Shown here piece after piece: positions 14,085-59,700 of a stretch of 64,000 nt of DNA. The DNA is taken from the NCBI GenBank assembly GCA_000002435.2, contig CM018793.1. One strand, 5' to 3'. The notes below the pieces were generated by a model, which had not been told where the DNA came from, did not search any database, and saw only the letters and a list, made by a program, of their open reading frames with translations. How positions within the stretch are numbered: the stretch's first letter is position 1; each line of letters begins with the position of its first letter. The position numbers and the translations under genes were made by a program. The DNA is from Giardia intestinalis. Lineage: Eukaryota.

Positions 14085-14278
14085 TTATTTATCATAGCAT
14101 AATCTGCATTGATAATCTCGCAGTATGTGCTAGTAAATGTTTTCTTGAATCAAGAAGATGCAGCGCCATTCTAGGTAGGTGTGTCTCTTGCTCGTTCATC
14201 AACGGGGATCCAAATCTAGAGTCTGAAATTTGAAAATCAGATGTCGTCCACTCCTGGTAGAAGAGCCTTGTGCTTTCT

Positions 14279-14448
14279 CCAAGGCAATAGAGGGCCTGAA
14301 ACTGGTGATGGATGCGCCGATCACTCGCCGCACTAGGCCAACGCTGGCCAGGATCATCGCCCGCTAGTCGAGATGGACCCACACGTGACCTATGTGAATC
14401 CCTCGGCAAGAGATGGGAGCCCTGGAGTGCTTGGCTGACAGAGGCGGA
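14279..14448 (+). repeat. Dispersed repeat, copy 1 (core 31-mer ggacccacacgtgacctatgtgaatccctcg)
   Basis: Aligns with 55155-55291: ccaaggcaa…gtgatgg…atcactcgccg…gaga(t/c)ggacccacacgtgacctatgtgaatccctcg…tgcttggctgacagaggcgga. Copy 1 carries an extra roughly 33-nt insertion. Confidence 0.65.
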
Positions 14449-15120
14449 TTGATCCTGACCGTACCGAAGAGTGGTGGTCTGGGCCACCTGCCTGGGGTCT
14501 GCTGCAGCAGCTGGCAGTGCCTGACACCCTCGAGTAGACGGGCGCCGGTTGTAGAGAGAGACGACCTCGATGAACTGGTCCTGATCGCTTCTGATGCTTC
14601 GGATGACACCCTTCAGAGAGGTGGCCCTGGACCGACGCCTCGACAGACCGAATCATTCCCCCAGGTGTGCTGTGCAGTGCAGATGGACCAGCCCACACGT
14701 CACTGAGCCAAACACGCTGCACAAGGTGAGCGTCGACACGGTCTCGTGCTGGGTGACGGAGCACCTGCAAGAGCGCACCGCAATCCATGAATAGGAGGGC
14801 CATACTTCTCCCCCGACACAACGCATGGGAGCTGTCCACTGGCATCCACGAACGCGTACTATGACTCCAAGATAGAGGTGCATGGGGAGCGCACCCTTGA
14901 TAATGGAACAGATAGTGCCCTCCACGAGGAGACGAAGAGGCACCCCGAGGAACGGGGTGGACACCCGGGGTCGTGGGGCGCGATCTTCGTCACGGAAGAC
15001 CAGAGCCCTGGATTCTGTGGGGGCCAGATCGCAGTGACCGACGCAAGGCCCGAGACAGCAGGTGCCCACTCAAGCGTCAGACAGTAGTTGGCCAAGGGAA
15101 GGGAGGAATCCTCAAAAAGC
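14449..15120. other. GC-rich, T-depleted (plus-strand) non-coding island 3' of HCMP-1
   Basis: No coherent ORF and overlapping short ORFs on both strands. The plus strand is rich in A/C/G and visibly poor in T. Confidence 0.4.
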
Positions 15121-15175
15121 ACCGCGAAGAACAGTAGCAGCTCCCGGAGGGATGAACATAAAGTTCTTCTTTTCT

Positions 15176-17791: not shown

Positions 17792-18489
17792 GCTTTCTAT
17801 TACGCCAAACTAACAATTACTGTACTGGGTCCAATTTTCGCAGAATCTGTGGGTAGATAACAATCATGGATTCGGTGAGCCTCAGCCTTGCTACCTCCTG
17901 GTCGAACGCTTTTCCTCGCGCATCATTACCCAATCCCAATCAGCACAGAAGCCTCTGAAGTCGTGGGATTGCAACCAAAGCGCCCTTAGTGAGACAGATC
18001 TTACGAATTGACCCCTTCTGTCCATCAATCTGAGTGCACGGAGCCATCTTGTGCCAGTGTGAGCTCCTGTGCAGCAAAATAGGTACTGTGCTGCTGGAGC
18101 CTCGCCTCACGCGGTCCAGAAGTCTCACGAGTAAATTCTCGCTCAATTCCTGGCCAATCCGGAGACGAGGGCTGGTTGTAGACAACATACTAGAGGGTCC
18201 CCTCTATTAGTGTATCTAAAACCTGGCACCTTCCCCGGTCGCTCTGTGGGTGTGTGCTCAGACTATGTGTGGGCGTCGCTCAGCCTTGGATTCAGCTTAC
18301 TCACCAGCACATGTAGTCTATGAGTAGTGCCTCGCTTCATGGTCTTTCTTCATGGTGGATGATAGATATGGGTTGCTACTATCTTTTTAACAATGCTTTC
18401 ACTTGTCTCGACGACAGCAGCTATTAGGTCTCTGGCTCGCTATAAGGGGCATCGTTATTTGTTCTCGGTCGCTGCTTCCCCTGTGAGTA

Positions 18490-18700
18490 AGCAGATCTTC
18501 TCTCGCCACCTCTCCAGCTCCACTGGCTGGGCCCCTCGATGTCCGTCTGGCTGTGGTTCTGGGTCAGCGCTCTACAGTCGCGGTCACCTGGATCTCATGG
18601 CGGGCCGGCTGGTGGGTGAGGCAGGGTTGGTGGGGCGGTGAGGCCGGAGGGGCTCCTGGTGGGGACCGGGTGGGGCGGTGTTCGTATGTGCCCTGGATCC
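18490..18700 (+). repeat. Left arm of an imperfect inverted repeat of about 210 bp
   Basis: Nts 18490-18700 align to the reverse complement of 20281-20500 at about 85-90% identity. One example is a 52/53 match in gggccggctggtgggtgaggc(a/g)gggttggtggggcggtgaggccggagggg; another is cactggctgggcccctcg(a/g)tgtccgtc(t/c)ggctgtg. Left has a 12-nt insertion. Confidence 0.7.
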
Positions 18701-20280
18701 GGTGGACTGGGGTGATCATAGCTGTGGTGACTGGGGGCTATCCATCTGTGACTCACCCCTCTGTGGGCTCGTGGTCTGTGAGTGCCTCCACCCAGACAAC
18801 GCCTCAGGAGCCGTGCACACCGGGACAGAGAGGATGACCAAGGGAGTCAGGCAGCCCTACCATGAGGGTGCACAGCAGCCAGCCTGAGCTGTAGGGTCTG
18901 CTCGAGCGATGTAGTGGCAGACGACTCCCTCTGACAGCAGCCCTGGTGACTGCACTGGTCTGCTCTCGAGACTGAGTGACAGTGCACACAGATGGACCTG
19001 AGTGCAGGAGGACCATCCACACACGGACAGACTGTGTGGACCCAGAGAGGACTGGAGTCTGCTCGGGACACGCTGACTGTGCCCCGTACGAGAGCCCCAG
19101 GCAACCACCCGAGCACCCGAGAGGCAGTGACAGACACGGGCACCAGAGATCCCCGGCCAGACACATTACTGTGCTCATCCACAGGGGCATCAGAGGGCCA
19201 GGTGAAGTCACCCTCACAACCAAGGGCCTGATAGGAAGCCAGAGGACTCAAACACTACAGCACAGCAGGCCCAAGGGAGGCACACTCCAGGCAGGTGAGC
19301 AGTGGCAGAGCCCTGACAGCTGCCAGCCCCCCATGACACCCAGGCAGGCACGACTCGCCGAAGACTCCGCTGGCCTCCATCGATGACCCAGGGGGCAGCA
19401 GCCAGAGGAGTGAGGAGGCCTTCGGATGACACAAGAGGCCCGGCTGTCCAGCAGGCGATGGAGCACAGGTGGTCTCTGAGTACCACCCAGGCACAGGACT
19501 GACCATCAGAGTGATGCCCGATCACAGAGACGACCACGAGCACCCTCCACTGCACTCTGAGGGGCTGTCAATCATCCCACTGCCTCTCATAGCAGACCTC
19601 CTTGGGGGCAGTGCAGTGGGTGACCCGGCTCGTGCAGGAGGGTGCACACCCCTCAGTATAGGGTGCCCCGGCTCTCCCCGAGGGGCCATCAGAGCCACGA
19701 GGATGGGTCAAGGTCCTGATAGATCACATCGGGAGCTCCCGAGGGCACAGCAGGTGATGTTGGGTGACCCTCAGCGTACTCCTCTCTGATGGTAGAGCAT
19801 CCTGAGACCAAGGAGGACTCACCCCTGCCTATGAACAACACACAGCGCTCCACAACAAGGATCTACCAGGAGCAGCACAGCTGGCCACGGGGACAGTGCA
19901 GCCACCAGTGCCCCACCGTGCCAGTCTTCTGGGCCATCACACTAGAGGCATGACAGAACCCCATCCCATCCACAGGGTTGTCCATACCCCTGCTGGCCCG
20001 AGGTGAACTACCGTCGAGGCACTGGACAGGGCATGCCAGGAGGCTCAGCAGACCCGCACAGAGCATCAAGATGGGCTGCGATGGTCTGCCTCACCCCTCA
20101 CGCACCAGCCAGACAGAGCAGCAGTACTACTTGAGACATGCAGGGGCCAAGGGAGGCACTCAGTCAAGGGACACGACACGATCGTCGGTGCCTCTGTCTC
20201 GGGAGTGCAACGAAGGCTGGAGATCAGACACAACCACCTTGGCAAACAGAGTGGGGATCACCCACCACCTCAATGGTCCA

Positions 20281-20500
20281 CCGGACCCAGGGGCACATAG
20301 AGACACCGCCCCCGGTCCCCTCCGGCCTCACCGCCCCACCAACCCCGCCTCACCCACCAGCCGGCCCACTGTGAGACCTAGGTGACTGGACTGTGGGAGC
20401 GTTGCCCGGGACACAGCCGGACGGACACCGAGGGGCCCAGCCAGTGAGAGAGCCTGGTGGCAGCCCCCGACAGACGGGGCATCTAAAAAAGACAGCGACC
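20281..20500 (-). repeat. Right arm of the inverted repeat (reverse complement of 18490-18700)
   Basis: Same alignment as the left arm. The peptide TGWAPRCPSGC is encoded on opposite strands at both arms (ORFs 18393-18641 + and 20350-20592 -), confirming the inverted symmetry. Confidence 0.7.
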
Positions 20501-20798
20501 CGAGCTTCACCCACCAGGACGGCAGACCAAGGAGAGGCGCCACGGGTAGAGCAGAGAGTCTGCGAAAAGGCCAGGGCCCTGGACGCGCACACTCAAATCG
20601 AGTACATGCCCGCGAAGTGGCAGAGGGGCGCACCAAGCTCTGGATGCGCTAATAGAGAGGAATCCCTAGCATGTTATCCACAACCAGCCCTCGTCTCCAG
20701 ACGGCCAGGACATGGGTGAGGCTTACCCGTGGGACGTCTGGACGCACCAGCAGCCGGGGCCTAGTAGCATAATCTACATAATCCATATACAGCAACGC

Positions 20799-20817
20799 GT
20801 TTACTACCTAAGTACAT
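20799..20817 (-). promoter_or_regulatory. VSP extended polyadenylation signal (ACTTAGGTAGTAAAC on the coding strand)
   Basis: The reverse complement of 20799-20817 is tgtACTTAGGTAGTAAAC, directly after the TAG stop. It contains the AGTRAAY motif, and the same block follows the mini-VSP. Confidence 0.6.
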
Positions 20818-22728
20818 CTACGCCTTGCCCCTGCAGATGAACCACCAGCAGAGGAAGCCGACGAGGCCGCCGACAACAACGATGACAGCGACGGAGATCC
20901 CCGCTATGGCGCCTGTGCTAAGGCCGCTCTTGTTCGTGTTCCCGCCGTTGTTATCGTTACCACCATCGTTAGTGACATCTGTCTTGACGTAGCAGGTGAC
21001 AGGACCGCCATTGCCACCAGTTGGAGGGGCACAGCTTACGCAATTTGGGACACCAACAATATGGCTACCATCATTGGGATCATTGGTGTCGCACTTCACA
21101 CATTTTGCTCCGGCAAGATAGTATCCCGGAAGGCACGTTTTGCATGCCTCCTTGTTTGCTACCTCACATGTTTTACAACCAGATGCACATGCTGGACAAG
21201 ATCCAGTGCTAGCTTCTGGTTGTTGTCCATTAGCACAATTCGTACATTTTCCATTCTGAGCATTGCTACATAGGTTGCTGCCTGGGTATGCAGCCGACTG
21301 ATAGCATCCGCCAGATTGCAAGAAGTATGTGGTTGTACACGCTTTGCATGTTCCATCATTGTTATCATTTGGCATGCATCCAGTTACTGCCCTTGTCGTT
21401 GTCGACACACAGACGCCGTCCACCGGGGCGAACCCTGCCTTGCACCTGCTGCAGTACTTCGAGCCCCCAACGACGGCCGTGCACTGGCCAGCCTCGCAGT
21501 TCTCTGCGTACCTTCCCGTGCACTCTGGGATGCATGTGCCGGTGGCTCCAGTATTGCTTTTGCTCAATACAAGCCCAGGATAACAAGCTGTACAGGAGGC
21601 TTCACTATCACCATCACATTCTGCACAAGAATTATGGCAATTAGTACATATCCCGCTGACATCACGAGTTCCTGCAGGACAGCCCTCCATACACATGTTC
21701 TTTAAGGGGCTTAGGCTTTTACCTCCAGTACACTCTTCACACATATTCTCTTCATTACACTTTATACAATCCTGTATATCACATAGTACACACTTCGTTC
21801 CGTCGGCGTTGGGTTGATTAGTACCTGCTATACAAGCAGAGCACGTGATGAGAATTGTACCTTCAGGATTATCCTTCAAAGCACACGTTTTGCAGTCTGC
21901 TATCCCTTCTGAGCATTTCTTACACATTTTTCCATTAGTAGGATCGTCAGCATCATCAGTGAAGTGGGAGTTATCATTACATCCACTTTTATCAACACAT
22001 GTATTAGAGTCCTCGGTTTCGCCCTTTTTTAGATATGGCTTGTTAGCGGTTGCCTTGCACTTCGTGCATTTTCCTGCTCCTGCATCGCATTTAGCACAGT
22101 TATTGTCCTGGCATGCTGTGCATGCTGCCCCATTGCTGTCAACAAAGAACCCCTCAAGACATGACTCACATACGGCAACCTTGTCTTGGCGAGCAGCACC
22201 AGCACTGGCTGGCGGCTGACACGTAGCACAGTTCAGAATTCCTTTATACGTATTTCCACCATCCACAACTCCAGTTGCATCATTGCATGCAATACAAGAG
22301 TCCTTATTGTTAGCTGCACTTGGGTTTTTAAAATAGCCAACTACGCAACCCTCACAAACGCCAGGAGTTTTTGATGACACACGACCAGCAGCTGCGGCAT
22401 CGGCGCAAATAAGGCGTCCAACGTCCCCGCCAATTGCATAGCATCCGTTCTTATGGAGGAAGTAAGCCCCGTCGCATTGCCCACATGTCTTTTCTGTTGT
22501 TATTTCAGCTCCAGCATCAGTCTTACATCCAGCAGTTGTGACAGTAGCATCCCCCTTTGGTGTGCATACTCCGTTGATAGGAACGTCTCCTTCAGCTTTG
22601 CATTCTGTACAGATCTCAGTATCACTTGTACTTATTTTTACACACTGCGTACATTTAGCAATTTGGGCATCCGATTGACAAGCTGCCGTAAGAGCGCTCA
22701 GCACGAAGTAGAAAGCTACCAATAACAT
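20818..22728 (-). CDS. Variant-specific surface protein (VSP), 636 aa
   Basis: Signal peptide MLLVAFYFVLSALTAAC, many CxxC motifs, and the invariant C-terminus …GLVGFLCWWFICRGKA*, which is the VSP TM segment plus CRGKA tail. Confidence 0.9.
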   Translation of the reverse strand: MLLVAFYFVLSALTAACQSDAQIAKCTQCVKISTSDTEICTECKAEGDVPINGVCTPKGDATVTTAGCKTDAGAEITTEKTCGQCDGAYFLHKNGCYAIGGDVGRLICADAAAAGRVSSKTPGVCEGCVVGYFKNPSAANNKDSCIACNDATGVVDGGNTYKGILNCATCQPPASAGAARQDKVAVCESCLEGFFVDSNGAACTACQDNNCAKCDAGAGKCTKCKATANKPYLKKGETEDSNTCVDKSGCNDNSHFTDDADDPTNGKMCKKCSEGIADCKTCALKDNPEGTILITCSACIAGTNQPNADGTKCVLCDIQDCIKCNEENMCEECTGGKSLSPLKNMCMEGCPAGTRDVSGICTNCHNSCAECDGDSEASCTACYPGLVLSKSNTGATGTCIPECTGRYAENCEAGQCTAVVGGSKYCSRCKAGFAPVDGVCVSTTTRAVTGCMPNDNNDGTCKACTTTYFLQSGGCYQSAAYPGSNLCSNAQNGKCTNCANGQQPEASTGSCPACASGCKTCEVANKEACKTCLPGYYLAGAKCVKCDTNDPNDGSHIVGVPNCVSCAPPTGGNGGPVTCYVKTDVTNDGGNDNNGGNTNKSGLSTGAIAGISVAVIVVVGGLVGFLCWWFICRGKA

Positions 22729-25700
22729 TGAAGCCCTTCTTAGCTTATTATATGGACAAGAATAAGATATCCAAAGCTAAAGCACTCTACCTGATCATAC
22801 TATATCAGATAATCTCAAGAGTCCATCTCCTATGATACCTTTGTTTGAGAGATGCAAATTAGTGGGTAGTAAATGTGTCTATTGTATAAGCCATCCCTAG
22901 GGACCCTTTGGGCCTGGGCAAGCGGCCTCCAAGGAAATTCATCCTCGTGCAGCACGCAGGGAGGCAGAAACTCAAAAATAATCTGCTGGACCGCCTCACA
23001 CACCTGCTTCTCCCCTGCCCTTCAGACAATGAAAGGACGCCCTGAGTGTCCCCGCTGTGCCACAGATTTGCTGCTGGCTCCTCTCCTAACGCCCTTGTGT
23101 CCCCGAGGTGTTGGCCCCTGCGCCTTCCCTGCGCGGATCGGGTCCCTGCGAACCCCCATTCACCGGCACTCTCTTCTCAGTCCTTGCAGCATTCTCCTTC
23201 ATCAGATTATGTTTGCGGCTTCTGACTGTTGTAGGAGAGCTGGACTCAAAGACGAGCTCCCGTGAGATTCTAGCAGAAGGTTACGGTGGTCGCTAAGGTC
23301 CATGGAAGATGTGAATCGGTGTAGATTAGCCCGTGAGACGCTTTGGTTTGTTGAGCGTGGACGGCGCTATTCTTCGCTTTTTGTAATGGATATTTTAAGA
23401 TACCTCACCGCACGACAAAGACTCAATTGGAGCTCAGGAAACGCAGGCCAACACTTCTACATTTGGACAAGGAGGAAGCACTGCCCAAACCGCGTTGTCT
23501 CCTAAGCTAAGAAACCAGGACTCCCATTACCCCTTTTGGATCATCCTGGTGCTGTCCATTGTAGCAGTAGTAGAACCACGATTGCTTGCAGTGCCTGAAT
23601 CTGTTGGTATGAACGACAAAGAGTTTCTTGTGGTGGGCTACTTCGGCAGAAAAAACTTAGGCCTGTCGTGTCGCTCCGCCAGCTATTAATCAGACCCGTA
23701 ATCAGCGTCCCTGTGGTCTCAGGTAAGGTACTAGGGTAGTCGGATCTCTATCTGCTGTCAGGAAGTCGAGCAGCGTCTGATTGTCACCGTTAGTCCAACT
23801 TATGGTTGGCCCTAGGTAAACAGATCGATTGATACAAGCATCTTATCTCTGGACTCACGAACCATACCATACGAGGAATTGCACCACTACAGCCCAACAT
23901 ACTTCTCTGATGCGTAATGCGAAAAGCAGACCTCATTGCATAGCTGTAGGAGTCTGATAATACCCGACTGGGGCATTATATTTTATGTGGTCTCCAGGGT
24001 AGTTTCACTAAAGGCCGGAGCACCGCTATACATAGACTGGTATGAAAGGTGGGATCCAGCAGCATACACCTTGAGTTGGGAGTTCCATAAGCATGCGTCT
24101 CTGATACAACTCGCCAAGAATCTTGTAGGAAGCTGGCCTAGGTCAGTGACTGGAAGATCTTCAATGGGCAGACGACTATTTTGGTCTACCAGTCGCTTAT
24201 CCCCCTTGTCGTGAAGGATATCTGCTAATGTCTAGTGCTGCGGACTGGGTAGCCCTTGTTCATCTGTAAGACTCGACTGGTGTACGTTGTAGACGACTGA
24301 CGAGACTGATATCATCCTCCATCAGGTGGCTCTGGGTGAGTAGGCGAATTCTGTAGTTGATCAGTTATTTTAAGAAAGGCTGCACTTATGAAGCCATAAC
24401 TACAACTTGCATTCGACAGACAAAGGTGCCCTTGGGCTGTGGTACTCCATACAGGTTCCTCGGGATGTGTGGTACCTCAGCGTAGTCTCCAAGAGGGTAG
24501 CCCTGCCTAGTTGAGCCTCGCAGACCCAAGCACAGTACAGTACCTTTTCAAGTTTATAGAGTCAAGCGCATCTCAGACAACGAGGACAGAAGGAGACCCA
24601 GAGGCGCTAGCTGGGCTGCTCCGATCCCTGCTGTCCGGGGAATCAGCAGGGCCGCAGGATGACAGGGCCCCATTTCGTGCCCCAGGAGGCCGTGCCTTGG
24701 TGGAGGTACGCGCCACGGTCACTGTTAGCTACCCGCTAACGAGGTACTGCTGTGCTTGAAGACCTCCCGGAATGACCTTTCTCGGTTTGCTGGCCATGAG
24801 CTGGGTCATCGCGCCAGCTGATTGGATGAGAAACAATAATAGTATTATCCAGACAATGAGCCGAGAAGGCTGATGCTGACTACGTATCTCTCACACTGAG
24901 CATACCCATTATGCAGCGTAAGGGATTTGACGTCCTAGGTGACTAGGTGAATCTAAAGTGCTCGTCAGTAACGATATGCATGCAGGCTCCAGACAGGGCT
25001 CTGAGAAAATGTTAAAGAGCACAAGACCTGCTGGACTATATAGGGCACACAATGAATGCCTACGCGGTAAACAGATTGACCCTTTTCCTTGGTAGACAGA
25101 ACTCTGGTCTGCAGTAGTCACCTACATGATGCGTGCCTTTGCAGGACCGATGAAGGCACCCGCTGATCTGGAAAGGTCATCAGCAGTGGCCACACAAGAT
25201 AGACAAGCAGAGGACGGGAGCGGACTCATCCTCATGGGGATGAGCAATCTAAACTACACAACGCGTGCGCCAATCTTTGGCCGAAACAGAGATGCACTGT
25301 AGGACATCACGCAATCCAAGAGACACTTTGGCGATTCATCTGTTGTGGGAGGACGCAAGTGAGACATTTGTGGACAGCAACCACGCCGACTGGTACCGGC
25401 CTGTACAGTATGCCTCTACAATAGATCTTCGCCTGTATACGAAGGGAAGGTGAATACCCTCGGCTCCAAACGAAGCAACTCTTGATAGATATTACGCTGC
25501 CGTAAATGCATAAAATCAAAAACTAGCATCTAGTTCGTCTGCAGACCCTACGACTTCTCTAGGTTTAGAAGTCAGAGAGACACTATAGGTGTCCCTGCTG
25601 TAATCTGGACCGGTAGCTAGTCTCTCTAGCACCGGTCTTACCCCACTGATCTGTTGATTACCCTTACATTCTCCATGCGAACCGGCTCTCCAGGAGCCGC

Positions 25701-28700
25701 CATGCACGGATAGTCTTCCAAGCACCTAGCAGACATTCTTCCTCCTTGAAGCGTGTCACCGAGGACTAGGCATCATGAGGTGAGCGCAGCCAGAGGCAAA
25801 TCTCCTTGTATTCTTGCTTACTACTAATAGCAAGTATGCAAGCGAGTACACAGGCTCTTGACGAGTGCATTGTGATTTAGGCCAGTCATCACACTAGGGT
25901 TATGACACTTGATGCACAGATTTCTATTTTTAGCTTTGTATGCATATCTATGTTTCACCTTGAAAGACGGTGAAGTGCTCTGCGGGGCCTTTTTGGATAT
26001 ACAGCTGTCACTATAGCTGATGGGGGAGTAGGTGCGAAGACCTTATTCTTAAACAAAAGCATCTCTAGTATAACCGAGCGCTGTCTTCCATCAAAGTAGA
26101 CACCTTAGATGGAATGACATCTACTCTATTTACCATGGCATTGTGCGGGCCTGTATACGCTACTAGAGAAGGATCCTGCAATATCTGCTTAATTTGTCAG
26201 GCGTATACGTCTCTTGTTGTAGCGAACGCAGTGGTAGAGACAATCATCGCCGGAAGGTAATAGGACGTGCTAGCTCAGTGTAACTTTGTACAGGTAGAAG
26301 CTACAGTACGCAACCAAGAGCATAACGCGCCAGCTGTTCATGCTACTCTCCTCCCTTGTATTGCTGTGCTTACGAGTACCTGTACTGCACTGTGTGTCAG
26401 ACTGTGGCACAGAGTATCCCCAGGCTACTCATTCAGTGGATTAAAGCTAGAACGACTGATCCTATGGACAGATGGGCATCCCAAGAAGACGGCAGCCGTT
26501 ATTGTTGTTCCGGATTTTTTAGTACTCAAGCACCAACCCTATGGGGGCACCCTACTTTCCAAGTCTCTGCGCCCATATCGAGGCGTGTTGTCTGGATGGC
26601 CTAGTCATGGCCACAAGGATGATGCAAAATGGTGGTCGTTCGCAGGCCCGGCCCCAATTCGCCCCTAGCCCTAAGTCACACTCAACTGGTGCAAGATGCT
26701 CTTCTTCACCGTAGGTATGCCTTTCGCTAGATCGACAAGCTGCTTGTAACAGGCCTGCCTTGCTGACCAGCTCTGCTGGCACTTGGTTCCCCTCTGATCA
26801 CTTAAGGGCGTAGCCCCAGGCTGGGTCCACGAGACAGCGCATGCTGATGGCAGAAGACAACACAGCTCTTCTCAAATATCTCGACCTGTCAACTAGTGCG
26901 GTCCCAAAGCGCACTGTGGGTCTTGGTAGACACGCAAGTACGAATCCGGACACTTTGAGATGCTAAGATTACTCAGCAAGGACAACACAATTCACCCTGC
27001 TTCATCTGAGAGGTCAAAGCCCCAGCTATTCGGAAGCCCAGCATCAATATTCATCTGGCTTATATACTCGGGTGCGCCTTGTTGGAAACCACATTGAAGA
27101 CTCCAATTCAGCGGTTACCTGGACTCACCATCCATTACAGTCGTGCCACCATCAGGGTTAAGTTTCCTACCTCACCTGTGGTCTGTTACAAAGGCATAAT
27201 TCGCGACCGGATGCAAAGGGCTTGATCTTTTCGGTACACTATGGCTACCGGTGTACTTTACTGGCTCACTGACTCTGCCAGCATCTTCAGAGACAGAGAC
27301 GCGCCACCATCACAGATCACACAGCCCTCTGCACATCCTGGAAGGGCTCTTGTGTTGTGCAACGTCAGATCCTGCCTGTCTGATACAGAACACATGGTAC
27401 TGGACGGCTAGAGAGGGAACGATGGGCGCTTGCATCCCACACCGAACCAGTCTGACTGCACTTGGACCGTAGCTCTTTGATCTCGCTGCCATAGACAGCG
27501 AAGGACACATCCTTCTGGAGATGGGATCTCTCGAGGGTTGGCTCATGGTTCAGTCTGAGCCCAGAACTCTAGGTATGGAGTGCACCACGCAATGATGAGG
27601 ACAGTAGTAGCAGGGACACTGTTTGGACCAGGTGGCCTTCTCACATTCCTCATTGCACGTGCCTGCATCCGATGCGGTCCACTCCTTCGATATGTAACAG
27701 TTGTGGCCCGGATGGCTAGAGTCTGGACCCACAAGCTATTGCGCCTGTTGTAGCGGCAAAGAAGACGAGTCACTTGCTTGTAGGCTTTGTCTACCTTCAG
27801 CCCTATCCAGATCTGCCGTTGTGCTAACACTACTGGTACCACGCGGCCTGTGTGATGGTCATGTCCCCTTCCTGCCATTCCTGATACCAAGTCCGATAGG
27901 AGCATCCAACAGAATATCCCTGGCGTTGTGCAGTCTTCATATGATGATCGCGTTAGACTCACTGCGCACCCACCGTTGCAGTGGTTGAACTGCTGGGCTC
28001 GGGAACTGCTGGATACTTTAATACTGATAGACGATGCCAGAACAAGCAAAGATAAAAGGCCTCAAAACCCCCTGCCCGTGAATGGACTCGTTATGTGCAA
28101 CGTGCCTACCCCTATCGTGTCATGTAAGACAGTAGGATTTTGCTGGTACAGTGCATTGATACAGTGATGATGCAGAGAAGGCAGCTCTGACTTACATAGC
28201 GATAGAAAGCCTGGTGATATAGATAGCGACATTATGTGATGGCGGACCCTAGCCGATAGGCCATGGGGATACAGAGCCCTTGCAACAAAGCTGTTCTTCA
28301 CATGAAATAGTAGAGTAGCATGATGCACCACAGGAGAGAGTCCCGCTTCCTCGTTCTGTCTGTTACATTATGGCCCAAGCATCGAACTTGCTGATAGCTC
28401 CTTATTCATTCCCCTATGAAGCCCTGGACACCCATTTAATCATACTACCTAGCCCTGCATAAAGATAAAACCCCACACTTAGCACTAATGATTGAATACC
28501 TCATTCTGCCATAACGTTTCCGGTGCACTGATTCCAATCTCGAGTAGCTAAGTGGATGGATGCATCCTTGTCAGGGGTAGTGTAGGCATGAAAGACTAGA
28601 CCCCAACGACAGGTTTGCACTTTAGCTTCTCTTGTTTACTCCTTGGTGGCGTCTTATATCTCCACTCAGGCGTGTGTTCTGAGATCGCTATAAGGCATAC

Positions 28701-29760
28701 AATGGGATCTTGCAGGACTAAAAGCACCGATGCCATCTACCTCCAGAATCTGGTAATATGGGTGTCCATGTCGCAGTTCTGGCAAACAACACTTTGTTCC
28801 TATACCATCCGCTCTGACCATGTGCTTCCCTTCTCCGAGCCATTCTCGACGACAATATTCATATTGACACGGAGAGCTGTTCTGTCATGCAAAGTGACTT
28901 GCTTCGAGCCGGTTGTATGGCAGTCCAGTTGTTCCTCATCCCCTCACAGTTTTCTCTGCAGCGGTCCCCTAATGATAGCGCTGTACGGCTCGAATCTCTG
29001 ACAAGATGCCTTACTAATACGCCGCTCTTCTGTATGCGTTCGGCGCCCAGCTGGCCCACGCTGTCTCCGTGGCTTAGTTGGATGCCTCCATGCACAGGGA
29101 TTCGTCAGGCAGAAGTGGATGCGCCGTATAATGGATCGTGTTGGTGCATATAATCGGAAGTGCACGCCTCTTGTTCGTATGCTGCTGAGGGCGCTGGCTG
29201 CAATGCGTGTCGAGAACAGAGTGCTTTGGATCGGATTACCCTGTGCCTTTTGTGCTCTAGGGGCTAGGATCTTATTCCCCCAATACTAGTGCCGGACTCC
29301 AGTTGGATTATAGGAAAGGGGCTCTGTCCAGCTCTGGCCCTCTTAGTACGGAGGTGCTAAGGATGCCTCTAGGATCCTCTCTGCTGCGGTTCTGTGTGCG
29401 CATACACCGGTCTGCAGTGGTAAAACGGCCTCTATCCTAGTTTTGGCCTCTCGCTATGTCGAGTACAGAGAACTTGGGACGCCCCTGAGTTTCGCTCCTG
29501 CAACAGAATGAGACAAGGGCACGGGGCTCTAGGCTTTGCCAGATACTTGTCTGGATGAAGAAGCGAGCGCTGATGTCAGAGGCTTTTGGTTGGCTGGTGT
29601 GTTTGTGGCATGCTCGGCGTAAACTGGTGTCGGCCTGTTCTTCTCGGAGCCTCGGTAAAGTCGGTCGGCTATGAAGGGAAGGAGCTTATGACAGTCTGTC
29701 CAGTGTAACCGACAACATCTTTGCTTAGGATAGATTTACCATCTAGTTCATCAGAGTGTG
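22729..29760. other. ORF-poor non-coding tract of about 7 kb between the VSP 5' end and the cathepsin-B 3' end
   Basis: The largest ORFs on either strand are 133-168 aa and scattered across all frames. Composition is near-average, and no tRNA-like or rRNA-like motifs were recognised. Confidence 0.5.
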
Positions 29761-50765: not shown

Positions 50766-51194
50766 CTACGCCTTCCCGCGGCAGAGGAACCACCAGCAGA
50801 GGAAGCCCACAAGCCCTCCTATAACGATGACAGCAGCCACAACAATGCCTGCAATAGCGCCAGTAGAAAGGCCGTTACTCTTGTTGGTGCCAGAAGACAC
50901 GCACGCGGTCTTCCCATCGTTCAGGCTGAATCCCTGGTCGCACACACACACCTTCTGGTCGTTGGCCGCGGAGTTCAGCGGGCAGCCCACGGCGCAGCTT
51001 CTTTTATCGAGTTGCACGTTCTGGCCAGAGACCTTGCAGTCCAGGCACGTCTGGTCGGGTTCTGCCCCGGCGCACGTCTTGCACCCTGCCGTGTCCAACC
51101 CTGATGCGCAGTTTGTGTTGGAAGCCACGCACGCGGTCTTCCCGCTGTCCTTTGCCAGCACGGTTGCACAAACTAGGAGAAATCCTACCAACAT
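50766..51194 (-). CDS. Miniature VSP (142 aa): signal peptide, a few CxxC motifs, canonical TM plus CRGKA tail
   Basis: Ends …STGAIAGIVVAAVIVIGGLVGFLCWWFLCRGKA*. The likely start is the Met at 51192-51194 (MLVGFLLVCATVLA signal peptide); the longer 209-aa ORF merely adds a non-VSP-like N-terminal extension. Confidence 0.75.
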   Translation of the reverse strand: MLVGFLLVCATVLAKDSGKTACVASNTNCASGLDTAGCKTCAGAEPDQTCLDCKVSGQNVQLDKRSCAVGCPLNSAANDQKVCVCDQGFSLNDGKTACVSSGTNKSNGLSTGAIAGIVVAAVIVIGGLVGFLCWWFLCRGKA

Positions 51195-51982
51195 TAGCCG
51201 GAGTTCATGTGCCACTGCTCTTCTGTCAGGCTGATGTGTTGCCGCGAGCAGTGAGAGACAGCCGCTCTTACTCTCTTGATCAGTTGGACTGGAGAAAGAC
51301 GAGATAGGAGCATGCCCACCGGAGGCCAGTTGATAGCACGGTTCCCCCTGACTTCGATAGGAACAGGATGAGTGAGGGCCAGACTCAGATCGCACCTCTC
51401 TTGTGGAGTGATTGATTGGGGTGCACTCCTGTACATTGCTGTCGCTGTATCACTGGGCCCACCTGCAGGTGCGCTCAGAGATCCCACGGGTAAGCCGCGC
51501 CCACTTCCTGGTCGTCCGAAGACTATGGCTGGTTGTGGATAACATACTAAGAGCTCCTCTCCATCGATGCATCCAGAGCCCTGTGTGGTCCCAGTCGGCG
51601 TGCTCTGTCTGGGGCGCTCCGTGTCGGCCTCCAGGATCTGGCCTGCTCAGGGCCATACGAGCCGCTAGTATGCCCTCCTTGGCCTGCCATCGACAGCTCG
51701 CACTAGGCGCCTTGCTCGGGCAGTAACCAAGGTCACACCAAAGGGTGGCTCCGGATTGCAGTTAAAATCAGCGGCGGCTGTTGACTCCACTCCTTGTCCC
51801 AGCCACCGCAGAGGGTGCCCTGGGAGATGCTAGTAACAGTGCAGTTAGCAGCTTTGCAGGGCCGATGGGCGCTGGTGGCGTTCCCGTGTTCAGCCCCAAA
51901 AAGTTGCATAGACGCCTAGGTAACATGCTCAGCAGGCACCCTCAGTGTTATCTACTCTCTCAGGGGATGCCCCTACCTTGCT

Positions 51983-53335
51983 GTGGAGGAGATTCAGCTC
52001 GATGGTTTGGATCAGCACGGTGTGGATGCTATTAAGCGTAGGCTGACCGCTCTTCTAGGCACCCTTCACCCAGACGTTCTCAAATACCACCAGGTGCTTA
52101 CAGACGGCAACGCGATCCTTGTTGTCACAGACCGCTGCTGTGGAGACCTCCGGCAGTTCATCACCGACTACAGGGACATTCACGAACCTATTCTCAGCAA
52201 GCTGGTCCTCTCCCTTCTGGGGCAGCTGGCTGGCGCCCTTGCCCACCTCCACGGGCTCAGCAGAGGTGCCCACAGCGGCTTGCCCTCTAGCGTTGTCCTC
52301 GAGCCCGACAACATCATGTTCGCTGGGGACAGGCGACGTGTCGTCCTTGGAGACTTCGGGTTCTGCAAGGGCATATTGAGTGGAGCTGCGAAGGCCGGCG
52401 ACCCCGCGTACATGGCCCCCGAGACACTCCTCTGCGGTGACATGACCCAAGCATCCGACGTCTGGAGCCTCGGGGCCATCGCATACGAGCTCGCCACCCT
52501 GAGGAAGCCGGACTTCCTAGAAGGTAAAGACCCAAAAGACGTCTTCGTTGACGGATGGAGGCCAGACCTGAGCGGTGTCGCAGACGACCTCGCAAGGAGC
52601 GTCCTTGAAGGAATGCTCGTCCTCGATCCTGCCGAGAGGCCGACAGCCAGAAGGCTTGTCCGTCTACTTCTGAGGCTTGACATCTCTGCTGATGAACAGG
52701 AGGCCCAAGACACAAGGCTAAAGGAGGCGCGCGCAGCCTTTGCAGACGCCTTGAATAGAGCCAACAACGAAACAGTAGCTCTTAGGAAGGACCCTCCTGA
52801 TCGAGCTACAAGAATGGACATCATCAGGGAGCAGTGTGCTATTGCCGCCAAGCTATTCAGGGAAATACAGGAGATTAAGGCAGAGATGGGCGAAACAGAC
52901 GAGCCAGACGAAAGGGAGGATTCAGAAGAGCCAGAGAAGAAGCACCTAATAGAGGAGGACGACTCCACCGACCTCATGAGGGCAGTCGATAGAAACGACG
53001 TGGAGGCCGTGAAGGCCCTCATACCACTCCAGGGGGGCACGAAGATGAAGGGATGCGCACTTGTAGGTGACTGGAAAATATACGAGGGAACTGCCCTGAT
53101 GAGAGCGGCGGTATATGGATACACAGAGATCGTGGGGCTGCTCGTGGAGAAAGAGAAGGGACTGAAAGATAGCAACGGATGGACGGCCCTCATGTGGGCT
53201 GTGAAGAACGATCACACAGATTGTGTCAGGCTCCTCATGAGAGAGAAGGACTTGAAGGGTTATAATGGAGGGACTGCCCTTGAAATGGCTAAGTTATGGA
53301 GAAACCATGAGATAGTCGCCCTCCTCTCAGAGTAA
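51983..53335 (+). CDS. NEK-like pseudokinase (lacks Gly-loop and HRD) + coiled coil + C-terminal ankyrin repeats
   Basis: Kinase C-lobe motifs are degenerate (LEPDNIMF instead of HRDLKPxN; DFGF; PAYMAPE), followed by ankyrin units (GTALMRAAVYGYTEIVGLL; NGWTALMWAVKNDHTDCVRLL). The beginning of the N-lobe (VFSPKKLHRRLGN…) is encoded in another frame at 51781-51982, so the N-lobe is frameshifted. Confidence 0.7.
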   Translation: MEEIQLDGLDQHGVDAIKRRLTALLGTLHPDVLKYHQVLTDGNAILVVTDRCCGDLRQFITDYRDIHEPILSKLVLSLLGQLAGALAHLHGLSRGAHSGLPSSVVLEPDNIMFAGDRRRVVLGDFGFCKGILSGAAKAGDPAYMAPETLLCGDMTQASDVWSLGAIAYELATLRKPDFLEGKDPKDVFVDGWRPDLSGVADDLARSVLEGMLVLDPAERPTARRLVRLLLRLDISADEQEAQDTRLKEARAAFADALNRANNETVALRKDPPDRATRMDIIREQCAIAAKLFREIQEIKAEMGETDEPDEREDSEEPEKKHLIEEDDSTDLMRAVDRNDVEAVKALIPLQGGTKMKGCALVGDWKIYEGTALMRAAVYGYTEIVGLLVEKEKGLKDSNGWTALMWAVKNDHTDCVRLLMREKDLKGYNGGTALEMAKLWRNHEIVALLSE

Positions 53336-53586: not shown

Positions 53587-55154
53587 ATGAAGGCAGGTCT
53601 CTCGTTCGTTCACCGCCCGGCATCTGAGACAAGAACTCGAGCTCGGGGGTCGCCCACCTCTAGAGAAGAACCTTGTGCTTCCTCCCTAGGGGGCCGTTGT
53701 TGCCCTGGGGTGCGTTCCTCTGGCCAACCTGGGCCAGCTGCTCCCCCGTATCCGATGGGCACCCGCTACCCCAGGGCCACGCAGCTCACCTTCCGCCTCA
53801 TCGAAGCTGGTCTGCCACCTGCCGGCCGAGCAATTCGTACCCCGTACAAGTCCTCCCCGCGGCAAGTGGACCCCGCCCGTTCGCCGCCCCAAGCCCAGAG
53901 TCCGGTATTCGGGTCAGAACGTCGGCCGAGTCCGGGGGAGAAGAGCCAGGCCGTGCACGCCAGCTCCGGCATCAACCGGAACGCCCTCCAGACCAGCCGA
54001 GGAACTAAGGCGCAATCTCTGCCGCCCAGTAGCACGACCGAGGCCGCGGTGTTGGGCGGACGACAGCACCAGAGCGCCCAGCTCGTCCAGGGCACTGCGA
54101 AGCGCCGCCCCTCGCAGGGGACACGCTCCGACGCCAGGAGAACGAGGGCCGCGGGCACTCATGAGCGCGCTTCCGGTGCTCCAGGTCCGGCCCGGGCCTC
54201 AGGAGCCCACTGAGACGGGGCGGTGGCACCGGGTGAACGTTGAACTAGTAGGAGCGGAAGAGCACGTGCCCGTCCTGCAGGAAAACCCTCCGCGATGAGG
54301 CCGTCCAGACGTATGCAGCACAGACACCGGATGTAGGGCGCTGCTGAGTGGAGTAATAGGAATAGAGAAGGACACCCCCCTCAGCACCCGTCGTGCGAAC
54401 GTGCTCAGGGGAGGGTACCTAACACCCCGCAGAGCCCCAGGTGAGAGCCGAGGAGACGTGCCTCGCTCACACAGCGGGGAAGCGGAGGAGCGGCATTCAC
54501 CACCCCACTGCCCGGCCTGCAGCCTCTGCCTCGCCTCGAGGGGGAGCTGCACCCTGACAGCGCCACCGACGACCAGCACCTTGCTATCCAGAGGGCCGGA
54601 TCAGGACGGCCTGGCCCCTGAGAGACAAGAGCCCCCTCAGCCATCGGAGAGCACGGACGGCCAGTCCACGGGGCTCGAAGTCTCCGGGCCTGCGCTGGCG
54701 AGTCCATCCGGGTGCAGGCCTTCAACGAGATCCTCGGCGCGATCCATAGGATGGGATGCGTGCTCTGTACGGTTCCGCCTGGCCCTTCCCCAAGAATGGG
54801 ACAGGACAAGCACGATCAACGGACGATCATGATTCGCTCCACAACACAGTTCCAAGGAGCTGCGTCGAGGCCTTCCTCCGGCTGCGACACGCTGCACTCC
54901 TGGACTCGGTCCCTCGGGGCCCTGCGCATGCCCCCATACTGCGTGGTACAGAACCTGCTCACCAGGAACTGAGGAGATACCTCGCTCACTGCCTTGCCGA
55001 CGACACATCCATCTTCCATAGTAGCAACAGTGATGCGACGGGGATAGCCACAGAGGCGACAGGCCTAGGAAATGCTATGGCTCGACGATCAGCACTGGGT
55101 GTAGGAGTACGGAGGGACAGGAGGCCTCTCTCCTGGCCGGGCTCGAAGGAGCCC
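53587..55154. other. GC-rich, T-depleted (plus-strand) non-coding island 3' of HCMP-2
   Basis: 1.5 kb with overlapping ORFs of 60-210 aa in all six frames and no coherent coding frame. The plus strand is strongly depleted in T. Confidence 0.4.
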
Positions 55155-55291
55155 CCAAGGCAACGGAGAGCCAAAGCTAGTGATGGCACTAATCACTCGC
55201 CGTGCTGGTTGAGACGGACCCACACGTGACCTATGTGAATCCCTCGACGAGCAAGTTGGGGCCCCTGGGGTGCTTGGCTGACAGAGGCGGA
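55155..55291 (+). repeat. Dispersed repeat, copy 2 (same family as 14279-14448)
   Basis: Shares the exact 31-mer ggacccacacgtgacctatgtgaatccctcg and the flanking blocks ccaaggcaa…atcactcgccg… and …tgcttggctgacagaggcgga with copy 1. Confidence 0.65.
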
Positions 55292-55594
55292 CGAGTCCTG
55301 GCTGCCCACAACCAGCCGGCGGAAGGGGAGGTCCTAGAAGGCCCTGCGAGAAGCACAGCAGCTCCCAAGAGGATAGGGCAAACCTTCTTCTTCTCCCACG
55401 GGGATCTAGGACATCCGGCTCTCGGGTCTCGGACGGTGAGCGGGAGGTCCACTCAGAGCGATGGCTCGCATGGAGAGATTTACTTAGATAGCAGCCTTAG
55501 TGATACTCAGTTAGCCATTTAAAATATCAAACAAAATACCACATGGTGAAAGCTAATAAAGGACACAGCTGTAGTTTCTAGCGCAGTTACTATT

Positions 55595-58069
55595 TTAATG
55601 GGTGCTTGCAACGATAGACTGCTTGTAGAGCAGTGGAACTCCGGCCTTCTTTCGGAAAACGAAAAACCAAACCAGCACAGCCGCCACACCGCCGACGACG
55701 AGGACCACGCCGATGGCGATGCCAGAGATAGCACTAGACGAGAGGGCGGACTTTTTAGAGGTGTTATCGTACTCCAGACATATGGGCTTGACTGCGCCCT
55801 CTGGAACCACGCAGAGGCTGCACTTGGAGATCGCCTTGTGACACGCCTTGCACGTGCTCTCGGAGAAGTAGTACCCGGCCAGGCAGTCGAAGCATGCCTC
55901 CCCATGAGGACAGGTGGCGCAGCCCTTGGAGCACGCCTTGCACGCCCCCTTCTCCAGGTAGAACCCGCTGTTGCAGGCGCTACAGGCTCCACCGCTACAC
56001 ATTGCACAGTTCGTCGGGCATGTAAGGAGCGTTCCGTTGTACGTTATCCCGTACCCGGCCACGGTGCTGTCACACCAGCCGTCGCTCGCCTTCGTGCAGA
56101 CAGTCTTCCCGGGGAGGAGCGTGGAGGTGTAGCACCCCCCGTTGAGCCTGAAGGAGTTCGAGCTGCAAACAACACACCTACCGGCGGCGACATTCGCGCA
56201 CGCGATGCCAGCCGCCCGCGAGCTGGAGGAGGTGCACGCCCCGTTGTTGGGGTACTCCGTGCTCTTGACGCAGCGCGAGCAGTAGCTGGTCCCGCCCACC
56301 GTGAGCCCGCACTCTGCACAGCTGCTGTCCTGCACGCACTGCGGGACGCACGATCCCTTGGCACCGTCGCTGTACTGCAGCCGCCTCTTGGCAGGGCAGG
56401 AGGTGCAGTCGCCGGATGCCGGTCCGCTGCACGTGGCGCACTCAGAGCTGCACGGCTTGCATCCTCCCGAGCCCTCGACGTAGAGCCCGTCCCTGCATGC
56501 CTTGCACTTGGATTCCGACTCGCAGACTGCGCAGTTGCCGAGCGTGCACGCCACGCACCTCGAGACGCCGCCCACGGTGGCCTTGTAGTACCCGGCGGAG
56601 CCCAGGCAGTCCTTCACGCACAGACCGTGGGGGTCGAGGCTGTTGCCATCGGTACACTTTGTGCACACGTCTCTGTCCTCGCACGTGTCGCAGTTGGGGT
56701 CCTTGCACTTGGTCGCCACGCACTGACTATCGGAGAGTGTGTAGCCATACTTGCACTTCTTACAGCTCGATTCATCACACTCAGCGCAGTTCTCCACCGC
56801 GCACCCGACACACTTCCCGTCCTTCAGATAGGACTCGTCATCGCATGCGCAGCTGTGGACCGAGGATGAGGACTCCTGCACGCCCTTCTGCCCCTTGGGA
56901 CAGCTGGCCAGGCAGCTCCTCTTATCCAGGCTCAGGTAGAGGTCGCGGCACTCCAGACACTGAAGACTACTGTCCTTCATCTCACACCTTTGACATCCCT
57001 CTATTCCCCCGTTGGCTGAGTCCCCGCAGCGCCAGCATCCGTTGTTCTTGGTGAACACCTCTTTGGTTGAGCTGTTACATGCGGTACAAACGTTTTCTTT
57101 CACTGCTTGACAAATCTGAGATTCTATTTGATCCGAAACATCTTTAAATAAGTAGCATCCACCATAAAACAAGAAATATTGCCTGTTGCCCTCATTCTTA
57201 CAAGATGTACACCTTCCCGATTCAGGATCCTTTACGCAAATGTCTTCAAACCCAGTTATTGATAGACAGAGGCCATTCAGAGGAATCTCTGATGGGTTGG
57301 TGCAGCGAGAGCATAGGGATTGCCCAGACATCTCCATGATATTCTCCGGTAGACAGATGCTGTTGCTTATTGGAGTATCTCTGGCATAACAAGCATAAAA
57401 GCTCCAAATGTGTGTTTCGGGACAGTATCCACAAAGACCATTGCTTGCACCTTCAGTGATGTGCTTACATCGATAATCATACGAGCATGTATTTTTGTGG
57501 TCTGAACATTGGTAGCAATTTGGGACCACTTCTTGCTTTATCCTTGAAGAGTTACAAACTAGACACCCATATATCCCACTATATCCACCAAAGCCCACAG
57601 TGTCTCCGCATGAGATGCATCGCTCGGGAGTGCTAGTGCTGGGATTGGTGAAGGCTACAGATGGCTGCGTTTCGTTTGTTTTTGCACATTCTACACAGAT
57701 CCCCTTTTCTGCTCGTTCACAAATGAACTTTGTCCAGTCTTGAGATAAATTATAGCACCCACCATAAAAAACAAAGTGGTCATCGCCGCACTTAGTGCAC
57801 CATCCGCCTGTTTGAGATTTAGCACAGCCAGACCGAGTAGCCTTGGAATCTCCAGCCAGAACACACTTGCCATCAATCGGTACGTATCCAGACTCGCATT
57901 CTGTACAAAGAAATCGCGAGGTTACACCCAATATGCAACTATTTGGAAGGCAATTTGGTATTTTACCTTCGCAGAAGTATCCAAACCCATTGCGATATAT
58001 AGGTGCCTCCTCAGAGAAGAACTCTGCCAGAAGACAAACCAATAGCAGAACTGATAAAGATCGTGACAT
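55595..58069 (-). CDS. High-cysteine membrane protein (HCMP), 824 aa
   Basis: Signal peptide MSRSLSVLLLVCLLAEF, more than 90 Cys in CxxC/CxC arrays, one C-terminal TM (IGVVLVVGGVAAVLVWFFVF) and a short tail without CRGKA. The GC-rich coding strand produces long spurious antisense ORFs. Confidence 0.85.
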   Translation of the reverse strand: MSRSLSVLLLVCLLAEFFSEEAPIYRNGFGYFCEGKIPNCLPNSCILGVTSRFLCTECESGYVPIDGKCVLAGDSKATRSGCAKSQTGGWCTKCGDDHFVFYGGCYNLSQDWTKFICERAEKGICVECAKTNETQPSVAFTNPSTSTPERCISCGDTVGFGGYSGIYGCLVCNSSRIKQEVVPNCYQCSDHKNTCSYDYRCKHITEGASNGLCGYCPETHIWSFYACYARDTPISNSICLPENIMEMSGQSLCSRCTNPSEIPLNGLCLSITGFEDICVKDPESGRCTSCKNEGNRQYFLFYGGCYLFKDVSDQIESQICQAVKENVCTACNSSTKEVFTKNNGCWRCGDSANGGIEGCQRCEMKDSSLQCLECRDLYLSLDKRSCLASCPKGQKGVQESSSSVHSCACDDESYLKDGKCVGCAVENCAECDESSCKKCKYGYTLSDSQCVATKCKDPNCDTCEDRDVCTKCTDGNSLDPHGLCVKDCLGSAGYYKATVGGVSRCVACTLGNCAVCESESKCKACRDGLYVEGSGGCKPCSSECATCSGPASGDCTSCPAKRRLQYSDGAKGSCVPQCVQDSSCAECGLTVGGTSYCSRCVKSTEYPNNGACTSSSSRAAGIACANVAAGRCVVCSSNSFRLNGGCYTSTLLPGKTVCTKASDGWCDSTVAGYGITYNGTLLTCPTNCAMCSGGACSACNSGFYLEKGACKACSKGCATCPHGEACFDCLAGYYFSESTCKACHKAISKCSLCVVPEGAVKPICLEYDNTSKKSALSSSAISGIAIGVVLVVGGVAAVLVWFFVFRKKAGVPLLYKQSIVASTH

Positions 58070-59296: not shown

Positions 59297-59700
59297 TCAC
59301 GCCTTCCCTCTGCAAATGAACTCTACAAGACCACTTGCAACAACGATCACAGCCACAGAAATACCTGTAATAGTACCAGTAGAAGCACGCTTCTGTTAAC
59401 ACTAAAAGACACGCACTTGTTATCATCATCTAGAACAAATCGTCGTTACACTCTGTACACGTATTGCCGAGACTCCGTCACACGTGTTAGTCTCAGAGTT
59501 TGGCGTTCCCTGAGGGCACGTGGCGTAGCAGTCGCCTCTGTAGAGGTAGGTGTTCCCCTGGCACACCCCGTCGATTGGGACGTGCGTGGCAGCGCACTTT
59601 GTGTAAAGCTCTTTAATGATACTATAATGTTTAATATCTAAGCAAATATCTTCAGCTGTACAATTTCCATAGCCAGGACATTCTTTTGAAGCTACTAAGA
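59297..59700 (-). pseudogene. VSP relic: Cys-rich fragment + in-frame stops + degenerate TM/CRGKA tail (CWWF deleted)
   Basis: The reverse complement of 59297-59393 encodes …STGTITGISVAVIVVASGLVEFICRGKA*. Upstream there are in-frame TAA/TGA stops, then a Cys-rich fragment …KCAATHVPIDGVCQGNTYLYRGDCYATCPQGT… with no start Met. A degenerate 3' block ACTTAGGAGTAAAC follows. Confidence 0.65.

Follow-up and report, generated by a model that had tools for sequence, protein, structure and literature searches.

Two published accounts, both citing Arkhipova and Morrison (2001), describe three families of non-LTR retrotransposons in Giardia WB, of which two are telomeric (GilM and GilT) and one is dead (PMC3091692, PMC10999387). 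Deletions through microhomology are a feature of the dead family, GilD (PMC2861651), and the WB genome paper of 2020 annotates pseudo-reverse transcriptases (pseudo-RTs) and mentions RT remnants located between pairs of VSP genes (PMC7000408). In the paper on P15, RT, VSP and HCMP genes are described as forming GC-rich islands (PMC3091692). Here, we analysed 64,000 nt of Giardia intestinalis DNA (contig CM018793.1 of assembly GCA_000002435.2; hereafter the window), in which two copies of a short dispersed repeat are located beside HCMP genes. We conclude, with a probability of about 0.9, that both copies represent relics of a dead non-LTR (LINE-like) retrotransposon of the zinc-finger/RT/restriction-like-endonuclease type, most probably GilD, a label assigned by match to published descriptions rather than to a deposited GilD sequence. 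The basis of this conclusion is homology to RT proteins, a modular architecture, deletion junctions shared between copies and decay as non-coding DNA; the original spread by retrotransposition and the family name are inferred.

The repeat pair and its further copies

The two copies are located at 14,275–14,457 (copy 1) and 55,155–55,300 (copy 2), and are homologous with 86% identity over 100 nt (blastn, E ~1e-24). A repeat search of the whole window resolves the match into two direct-repeat pairs, namely 14,363–14,410/55,204–55,251 (90%) and 14,411–14,457/55,254–55,300 (83%), the latter with a 2-nt offset from the former, and alignment with MAFFT extends the homology leftwards to 14,275 and 55,155, across indels of 2 and 3 nt and a 29–31-nt segment that is present in copy 1 and absent from copy 2. 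The copies share an exact 31-mer, GGACCCACACGTGACCTATGTGAATCCCTCG, at 14,375–14,405 in copy 1 and at 55,216–55,246 (+) in copy 2, where it resides inside an imperfect 41-nt hairpin and reads MDPHVTYVNPS in the ancestral frame. With 0–3 mismatches, the 31-mer is found in 10 distinct copies, the overall column identity of which is ~77%. The first-pass annotation had placed both copies on the plus strand, with an exact 31-mer in common, next to a plus-strand HCMP-1 and a minus-strand HCMP-2; repeat search and blastn bear this out, with HCMP-1 at 12,186–14,084 (+) and HCMP-2 at 55,595–58,069 (−). An exact scan of JGI metagenome contigs with the 31-mer gave no match, and a full-text literature search with pieces of the sequence returned only unrelated mouse primers.

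Both copies are located within regions of 57–66% G+C, such that the match could in principle reflect chance similarity between GC-rich, low-complexity sequences. This explanation is refuted by the blastn E-value of ~1e-24 and by the alignment in register of ten homologous copies, in agreement with the first-pass annotation, which had considered chance similarity unlikely in view of the exact 31-mer; moreover, the 31-mer is not found in locus L001, and shuffled sequence is expected to yield 0.00 matches.

With respect to the neighbouring genes, HCMP-2 gives a strong match to the Pfam VSP family, and the match of HCMP-1 falls below the Pfam cut-off. HCMP-2 (824 aa) has no exact protein record and is only 94% identical to the old WB entry XP_001704991.1 (812 aa), in contrast to eight other proteins of the window, the identity of which to WB entries (KAE8304634-658) shows that the window is from WB. 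The difference may reflect a revision of the gene model or of the sequence in the newer assembly; alternatively, XP_001704991.1 may be a paralogue. Immediately upstream of copy 2 lies a gene for a NEK-type kinase with ankyrin repeats (51,983–53,335, +), the longest ORF of which starts with GTG, the true start probably being a downstream ATG. Two probable VSP pseudogenes are also present in the window, a C-terminal fragment with the canonical CRGKA tail (50,766–51,395, −) and a 33-aa C-terminal remnant (59,300–59,383, −).

Further copies were sought by comparing the translated open frame that runs across copy 2 (55,092–55,496, −) with the protein collection. The search retrieved 11 short, spurious 'hypothetical proteins', among them entries of DH, WB and ENA, and the DNA of these ORFs yielded eight further distinct copies, each with the 31-mer at 0–3 mismatches. 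Several of these copies are located at contig ends and many lie beside VSP fragments. The GC-rich relic sequence of the window itself gives rise to three such long, spurious ORFs (54,756–55,229, +; 55,092–55,496, −; 14,092–14,487, −), with homologues P0024–P0034. Deposited 'hypothetical proteins' of this kind are found in the annotations of DH (DHA2_154431, 151561, 151683, 151796 and 154234) and old WB (GL50803_120021), as well as among metagenome gene calls.

The homology of the window to these loci reaches well beyond the repeat, extending over 0.6–1.6 kb at each island. The island downstream of copy 1 (14,353–15,163) has 80–85% identity to L009 and L008, and the island upstream of copy 2 (53,786–55,305) has 80% identity to L007 over 1,634 nt and 85–88% to L008. 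At three DH loci (L008, L010 and L011), both islands are contiguous on either side of the repeat, in the order Y-C-X(-T), where C is the repeat, Y and X are the sequences 5' and 3' of it and T is a terminal module. At the protein level, the two islands of the window have no similarity to each other outside the repeat, because they hold different parts of the element. The repeat is the part that is still kept by two differently deleted copies of one element, and has no function of its own.

The first-pass annotation had argued against a conserved 3'-UTR element belonging to the HCMP genes. Indeed, its orientation is unlinked to that of the HCMP genes, and the other copies have unrelated neighbours, including a WD40/IFT-like gene, an RNase PH gene with ribosomal protein genes, and VSP fragments. 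The further claim that the repeat, ~137 nt in length, is an independent unit fails, however, since islands and repeat together constitute one degenerate non-LTR retrotransposon. A remark that the GC-rich island is on the far side of the repeat at HCMP-1 and on the gene-proximal side at HCMP-2 fits the element, where GC-rich sequence follows the repeat 3' on the plus strand in both cases (14,457–15,301, X and T, in copy 1; 55,305–55,496, T, in copy 2); viewed from HCMP-1 this sequence is beyond the repeat, and at the other locus it lies between the repeat and HCMP-2. Two features had escaped notice, namely the large island 5' of copy 2 (53.6–55.15 kb), which is part of the same element, and a more diverged terminal module common to both copies (15,104–15,301 and 55,323–55,496).

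Architecture, decay and protein homology of the element

Copy 1 spans about 14,164–15,301 and has the order T_inv-C-X-T, where T_inv is an inverted terminal module, whereas copy 2 spans about 53,590–55,496 and has the order T_inv-Y(zinc finger...RT)-C-T. In copy 1, T_inv (14,164–14,288, −; nhmmer E 2.5e-12) is located beside the 3' end of HCMP-1 and abuts module C (14,263–14,457, +), an arrangement also found in L009 and L005. Module C of copy 1 keeps the ancestral 29–31 nt (about 14,331–14,360) that are gone from copy 2. It is followed by module X (14,457–15,100, +), a degenerate 3' part of the ORF with 78–84% identity to L008, L009, L010 and L011, and then by the 3'-terminal module T (15,104–15,301, +; nhmmer E 4e-26), which is included in the alignment of 14 T modules. 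In copy 2, two partial copies of T_inv are located at the 5' end of the element (53,590–53,699, E 5.5e-7; 53,799–53,944, E 1.7e-7; both −, nhmmer). Module Y (53,786–55,150, +), which forms the upstream GC-rich island and is recognised by its identity to L007 and L008, is a degenerate 5' part of the ORF that contains an N-terminal C2H2 zinc-finger remnant (54,215–54,625, +; tblastn with P0127 and P0126) and a remnant of the RT domain with its YxDD box (54,849–55,127, +; tblastn with P0132 and P0129). The noted repeat is module C (55,150–55,305, +), defined by an alignment of 8–10 copies and carrying the 29–31-nt internal deletion relative to copy 1; it is joined straight to the 3'-terminal T (55,305–55,496, +; nhmmer E 1.6e-34), which ends in ATTTACTTAGATAG. 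A consensus of the whole element was uninformative, with deleted copies outvoting module X.

All copies end in the shared terminal module T of ~200 nt, of which 14 instances were aligned, and copies with examinable ends carry T at one end and inverted T at the other. A T profile built without sequence from the window matches it at 55,323–55,496 (+) and 15,104–15,301 (+), and in inverted orientation at 14,288–14,164, 53,944–53,799 and 53,699–53,590. Inverted T is carried by the two copies of the window as well as by L001, L002, L005, L007, L009, L010 and L011. In L011, a complete copy of 1.65 kb, the inverted termini are located at 530–653 and 2,057–2,178 (77% over 125 nt), and in the intact P15 copy, L001, inverted T lies upstream of the ORF. 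The end of T reads ...CATGGAGAGATTTACTYAGATAGCAG..., followed in some copies by CTCAGTGAAAC-AGAGTAAAT, and these motifs resemble the poly(A) signals of Giardia (AGTRAAY). No poly(A) tail is visible at the 3' end, only the AGTRAAY-like signals within T. Target-site duplications were sought at the ends of copy 1, copy 2 and L011, where no shared k-mer exceeds chance; as the ends of old copies are fuzzy, this negative result weighs little.

The copies are decaying as non-coding DNA. Codon periodicity is absent from the substitutions between them, the lengths of indels are not divisible by three and the reading frame shifts between copy 1 and copy 2. Conserved coding between the two was considered and rejected, given the indels of 2, 3 and 29 nt and the changes of frame. 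The large internal deletions differ from copy to copy; the C-T junction, at which module X (~640 nt) is deleted, is nevertheless identical in copy 2, L002, L005 and L006. Undeleted copies have a TGACC microhomology at both breakpoints of this deletion. For the 29–31-nt deletion within C, the MAFFT alignment suggests TCGCC repeats at both ends. The stretch that adjoins copy 2 on its right ('Z', ~190 nt) corresponds to the last ~190 nt of the element, its terminal module T.

The coding capacity of the ancestor is revealed by a homologue of module Y from P15. This sequence, L001 (ACVC01000227, 3–1,673, −), remains open for 557 codons and continues past the contig end, a length for which we estimate a chance probability of roughly 5e-7 from base composition. 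The intact ORF encodes four C2H2 fingers (Pfam zf-C2H2 families), and has 92% identity to the P15 'Reverse transcriptase' P0126 (zf-C2H2 and RVT_1 by Pfam) and 89% to P0129, annotated as 'Reverse transcriptase/endonuclease, putative'. Proteins of this group match copy 2 by tblastn. The zinc-finger remnant at 54,215–54,625 aligns with residues 455–599 of P0127 (35%, E 1.7e-10) and with residues 214–325 of P0126 (E 4e-12), and a piece preceding the RT maps to 54,511–54,759. The RT remnant at 54,849–55,127 aligns with P0132 (55% over 93 aa, E 5e-22) and with residues 258–346 of P0129 (48%, E 3e-12). Within the RT box, CLADDTSIFHSSNSDATGIATEAT of the window corresponds to IAYADDILIFHSDNSDATGIVTEAT of P0129, such that LADD aligns with the intact YADD. 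No Pfam domain was detected in the island ORFs of the window, RVT_1 being missed in the ORF at 54,756–55,229, and scanning the 2.4-kb L008 element with Pfam in six frames likewise gave no domain and no VSP match. The miss of the RT by Pfam is a false negative, the homology being visible only against Giardia's own RT proteins.

Relatives that reach past the RT domain were gathered by an exhaustive HMMER search with P0129. One of these, P0150, aligns through residues 79–106 with 14,272–14,355 in module C of copy 1 (57%; E 1.5e-4 and 2.7e-6 in two tblastn searches) and, once a single frameshift is corrected, the translation of this module matches residues 81–148 in a database of 12 sequences (43% over 68 aa, E 5e-9). 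By alignment, module C is therefore assigned to the ORF segment just C-terminal of the RT palm, which by position is predicted to be the thumb region. The translated 31-mer, MDPHVTYVNPS, aligns with MDSPPDEYESF of P0150, and the 29–31 nt kept by copy 1 and L005 only are ancestral ORF sequence (TRPTLARIIA versus AKLTLARICV). Of the endonuclease, only the last motif is detectable: a profile of the C-termini of Giardia RT/endonucleases gives weak matches to module X at one and the same position in several copies, including L011 (E 4e-4) and L008 (E 0.017), where the motif YY.SKIE.HGERALPVILGTDG of X compares with ...LP(I/V)VVG.DG. Copy 1 has a homologous but disrupted form of this endonuclease-end motif at 14,841–14,960 (YYDSKIEVHGERTLDNGTD), which is not significant in the window copy itself, and X at about this position is possibly, on weak similarity, a remnant of the C-terminal end of an endonuclease domain.

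On the basis of these comparisons, we suggest that the ancestral element would have read, on the plus strand, from an inverted terminal module through an ORF to a short 3' UTR ending in the ~200-nt terminal module with its poly(A)-signal-like motifs. The ORF would have encoded C2H2 zinc fingers, RT, a post-RT segment and an endonuclease. Separate internal deletions, some of them between 5-nt direct repeats, then shortened each copy. From copy 1, all sequence that once separated the inverted terminus from the post-RT segment is gone, the zinc-finger and RT regions included, whereas copy 2 keeps remnants of both regions. Copy 2 has lost about 640 nt of the endonuclease region, 29–31 nt inside the segment that follows the RT, and several hundred nt from the stretch linking the zinc fingers to the RT.

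Alternative origins and other features of the window

The conservation of the 31-mer (0–3 mismatches in 10 copies, compared with ~77% column identity) and its position in a hairpin that is 97% paired across all ten copies raise the question of whether it is a selected RNA or DNA element, such as a small-RNA precursor or a protein-binding site, and small RNAs reported from the telomeric retrotransposons of Giardia (PMC10999387) would be in line with such a role. We nevertheless consider this very improbable. The hairpin has no covariation, with the observed values reached by 276 of 500 shuffles, and folding energies equal those of shuffled sequences for both copies and both strands (z −0.3 to −1.2). 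Rfam gave no match, either in a gathering search of the whole window or in an E-value search of 54,000–55,700. At 0.94, the 31-mer lies at about the 99th percentile, yet five other 31-column stretches, within RT and X, reach 0.93–0.94, and the segment aligns as protein-coding sequence to the intact relative P0150. There is no case for a function of the 31-mer apart from the element. Alternatively, the relics beside VSP and HCMP genes may not be inert, in that the hairpin, or double-stranded RNA that the inverted T modules could form when transcribed, feeds the Dicer/Argonaute pathway of Giardia, or in that the relics serve as recombination substrates that reshuffle surface-antigen neighbourhoods; we regard this as very unlikely.

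A transposable-element origin could also be combined with a different mode of spread, whereby the two loci of the window arose by segmental duplication and recombination within the variable, VSP/HCMP-rich regions rather than by independent retrotransposition, and the shared segment is a tract of recombination or gene conversion. Around C, left and right flank types occur in all four combinations, L011 and L009 have about 570 nt in common beyond the terminal module, several copies are located at contig ends and beside VSP/HCMP genes, and about 6.9% of the WB genome has been described as duplicated (PMC7000408). Against this, identity between the two copies of the window is only about 86%, and beyond the element their flanking sequences are not related. 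The flank 'types' are accounted for by internal deletions of one element, and within assemblage A, members of the deleted subfamily are found in at least two gene contexts that are unrelated. As an account of the two loci, this reading is unlikely; the mosaic copies and the ~570 nt shared by L011 and L009 do show that part of the spread took place through segmental duplication or recombination and not through retrotransposition. The inverted terminal modules of ~125–200 nt that bound copies with examinable ends, and the retention of both ends while internal deletions differ, would also be expected of a DNA transposon, cut-and-paste or foldback, with non-autonomous deleted copies bounded by terminal inverted repeats. 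The only coding capacity, however, is zinc finger and RT, with weak traces of an endonuclease; no transposase and no target-site duplications were found, and L001 suggests that the inverted module belongs to the 5' region of the intact retrotransposon itself. A survey of WB in 2001 reportedly found no transposase-related sequences. We consider the DNA-transposon reading very unlikely, and retain the interpretation of both copies as relics of a non-LTR retrotransposon.

Two further candidates were discarded. Comparison of the VSP/HCMP genes of the window with six elements (tblastn and blastn) gave nothing beyond chance and argues against a VSP/HCMP pseudogene, and a tRNA-derived SINE, considered on account of a tRNA-like 27-mer beside the L008 copy, was dropped as this feature is peculiar to that locus with its tRNA-Ile array. 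A tRNA scan of the window found no tRNA genes. At L008 (DH AHGT01000015), 11,670–12,154 comprises a tRNA-Ile(GAU) gene that follows a tandem array of four incomplete copies of the gene's 5' two-thirds, with a period of 72–103 nt; on the other side of the relic and in the same orientation lies the 27-nt piece resembling a tRNA 5' half (9,127–9,153), which may be a target or recombination footprint.

Two other regions of the window are conspicuous. About 7 kb at 22,800–29,760, with roughly 50% G+C, have no ORF of at least 170 aa on either strand. A dead retrotransposon was considered for this region (22.8–29.8 kb) and rejected, as a six-frame Pfam scan was negative and no RT matches were obtained by tblastn. 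Part of it (24,055–26,032) has 71–75% identity to 10,816–12,704 of the DH locus L009, directly beside the relic copy of L009. The second region (17,400–20,800) is a GC-rich (57–62%), strongly A>T-skewed island next to a VSP gene (20,818–22,728, −) and contains inverted repeats at 18,158–18,652 and 20,317–20,701 that are 70–94% complementary. L007 matches 20,947–20,486 through its positions 97–566 (77%). No similarity to RT, the T module or VSP was found within this island, and the retrotransposon family does not explain it.

Comparison with described elements

The repeat is real but ordinary. Its significance reaches little beyond annotation: two GC-rich, ORF-free islands of WB are explained as relics of a known dead retrotransposon, as are the related spurious 'hypothetical proteins' called in DH, WB and metagenomes. 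A practical warning is that the RT remnant was missed by Pfam and revealed only through intact relatives from assemblage E. Genome-wide masking of such relics could draw on the T profile and on the map of modules (inverted T, zinc finger, RT, post-RT segment, endonuclease end and T).

The domain order of the element, with N-terminal C2H2 fingers, RT and a putative C-terminal restriction-like endonuclease, is that of R2/CRE-type elements. The latter are site-specific, a property of which the relics show no sign, and R2 is not characterised by terminal inverted repeats, which are unusual among LINEs more generally. GilM and GilT, which are telomeric and potentially active, share the general layout of N-terminal zinc finger, RT and C-terminal restriction-like endonuclease, and the C-terminal motif LP(I/V)VVG.DG of P0136 and P0137, which we take to be GilM/GilT-like, resembles the remnant in module X. 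These two proteins have only about 37% identity to the P15 RT, however, and tblastn gave no match between them and the window at E<0.01. GilM and GilT, moreover, form subtelomeric tandem arrays, whereas no telomeric TAGGG repeats are found in the window.

GilD, by contrast, is published as 'dead', ridden with deletions and located near VSP genes, and the relics are likewise chromosome-internal and beside VSP-family genes. VSP/HCMP neighbours (HCMP-1, HCMP-2 and VSP fragments) are seen in the window and at L002, L007, L008 and L009. In WB and DH, every copy seen is degenerate, bearing frameshifts, stops and internal deletions at microhomologies, and the ORF holds an RT; in this comparison, which is by description only, nothing tested contradicts membership in GilD. 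Burke et al. (2002) reportedly described a 'Genie 2' of Giardia with inverted repeats of up to ~172 bp in all copies, and this is presumably the same family as GilD of Arkhipova and Morrison (2001). The copies studied here also have inverted repeats wherever their ends can be examined.

Intact relatives come from P15 (assemblage E). Several near-identical proteins (P0126–P0129) are present there, and the lineage, dead in WB, may have been recently active in assemblage E. The P15 genes P0126 and P0129 and the L001 ORF belong to the same lineage as the relics, with 70–78% nucleotide identity to module Y and 35–55% amino acid identity between the P15 RT genes and the window remnants. They share with the relics the succession of zinc finger and RT and the inverted terminal module upstream of the ORF, but differ in having open frames of at least 557–657 aa, whereas the WB copies are dead and heavily deleted.
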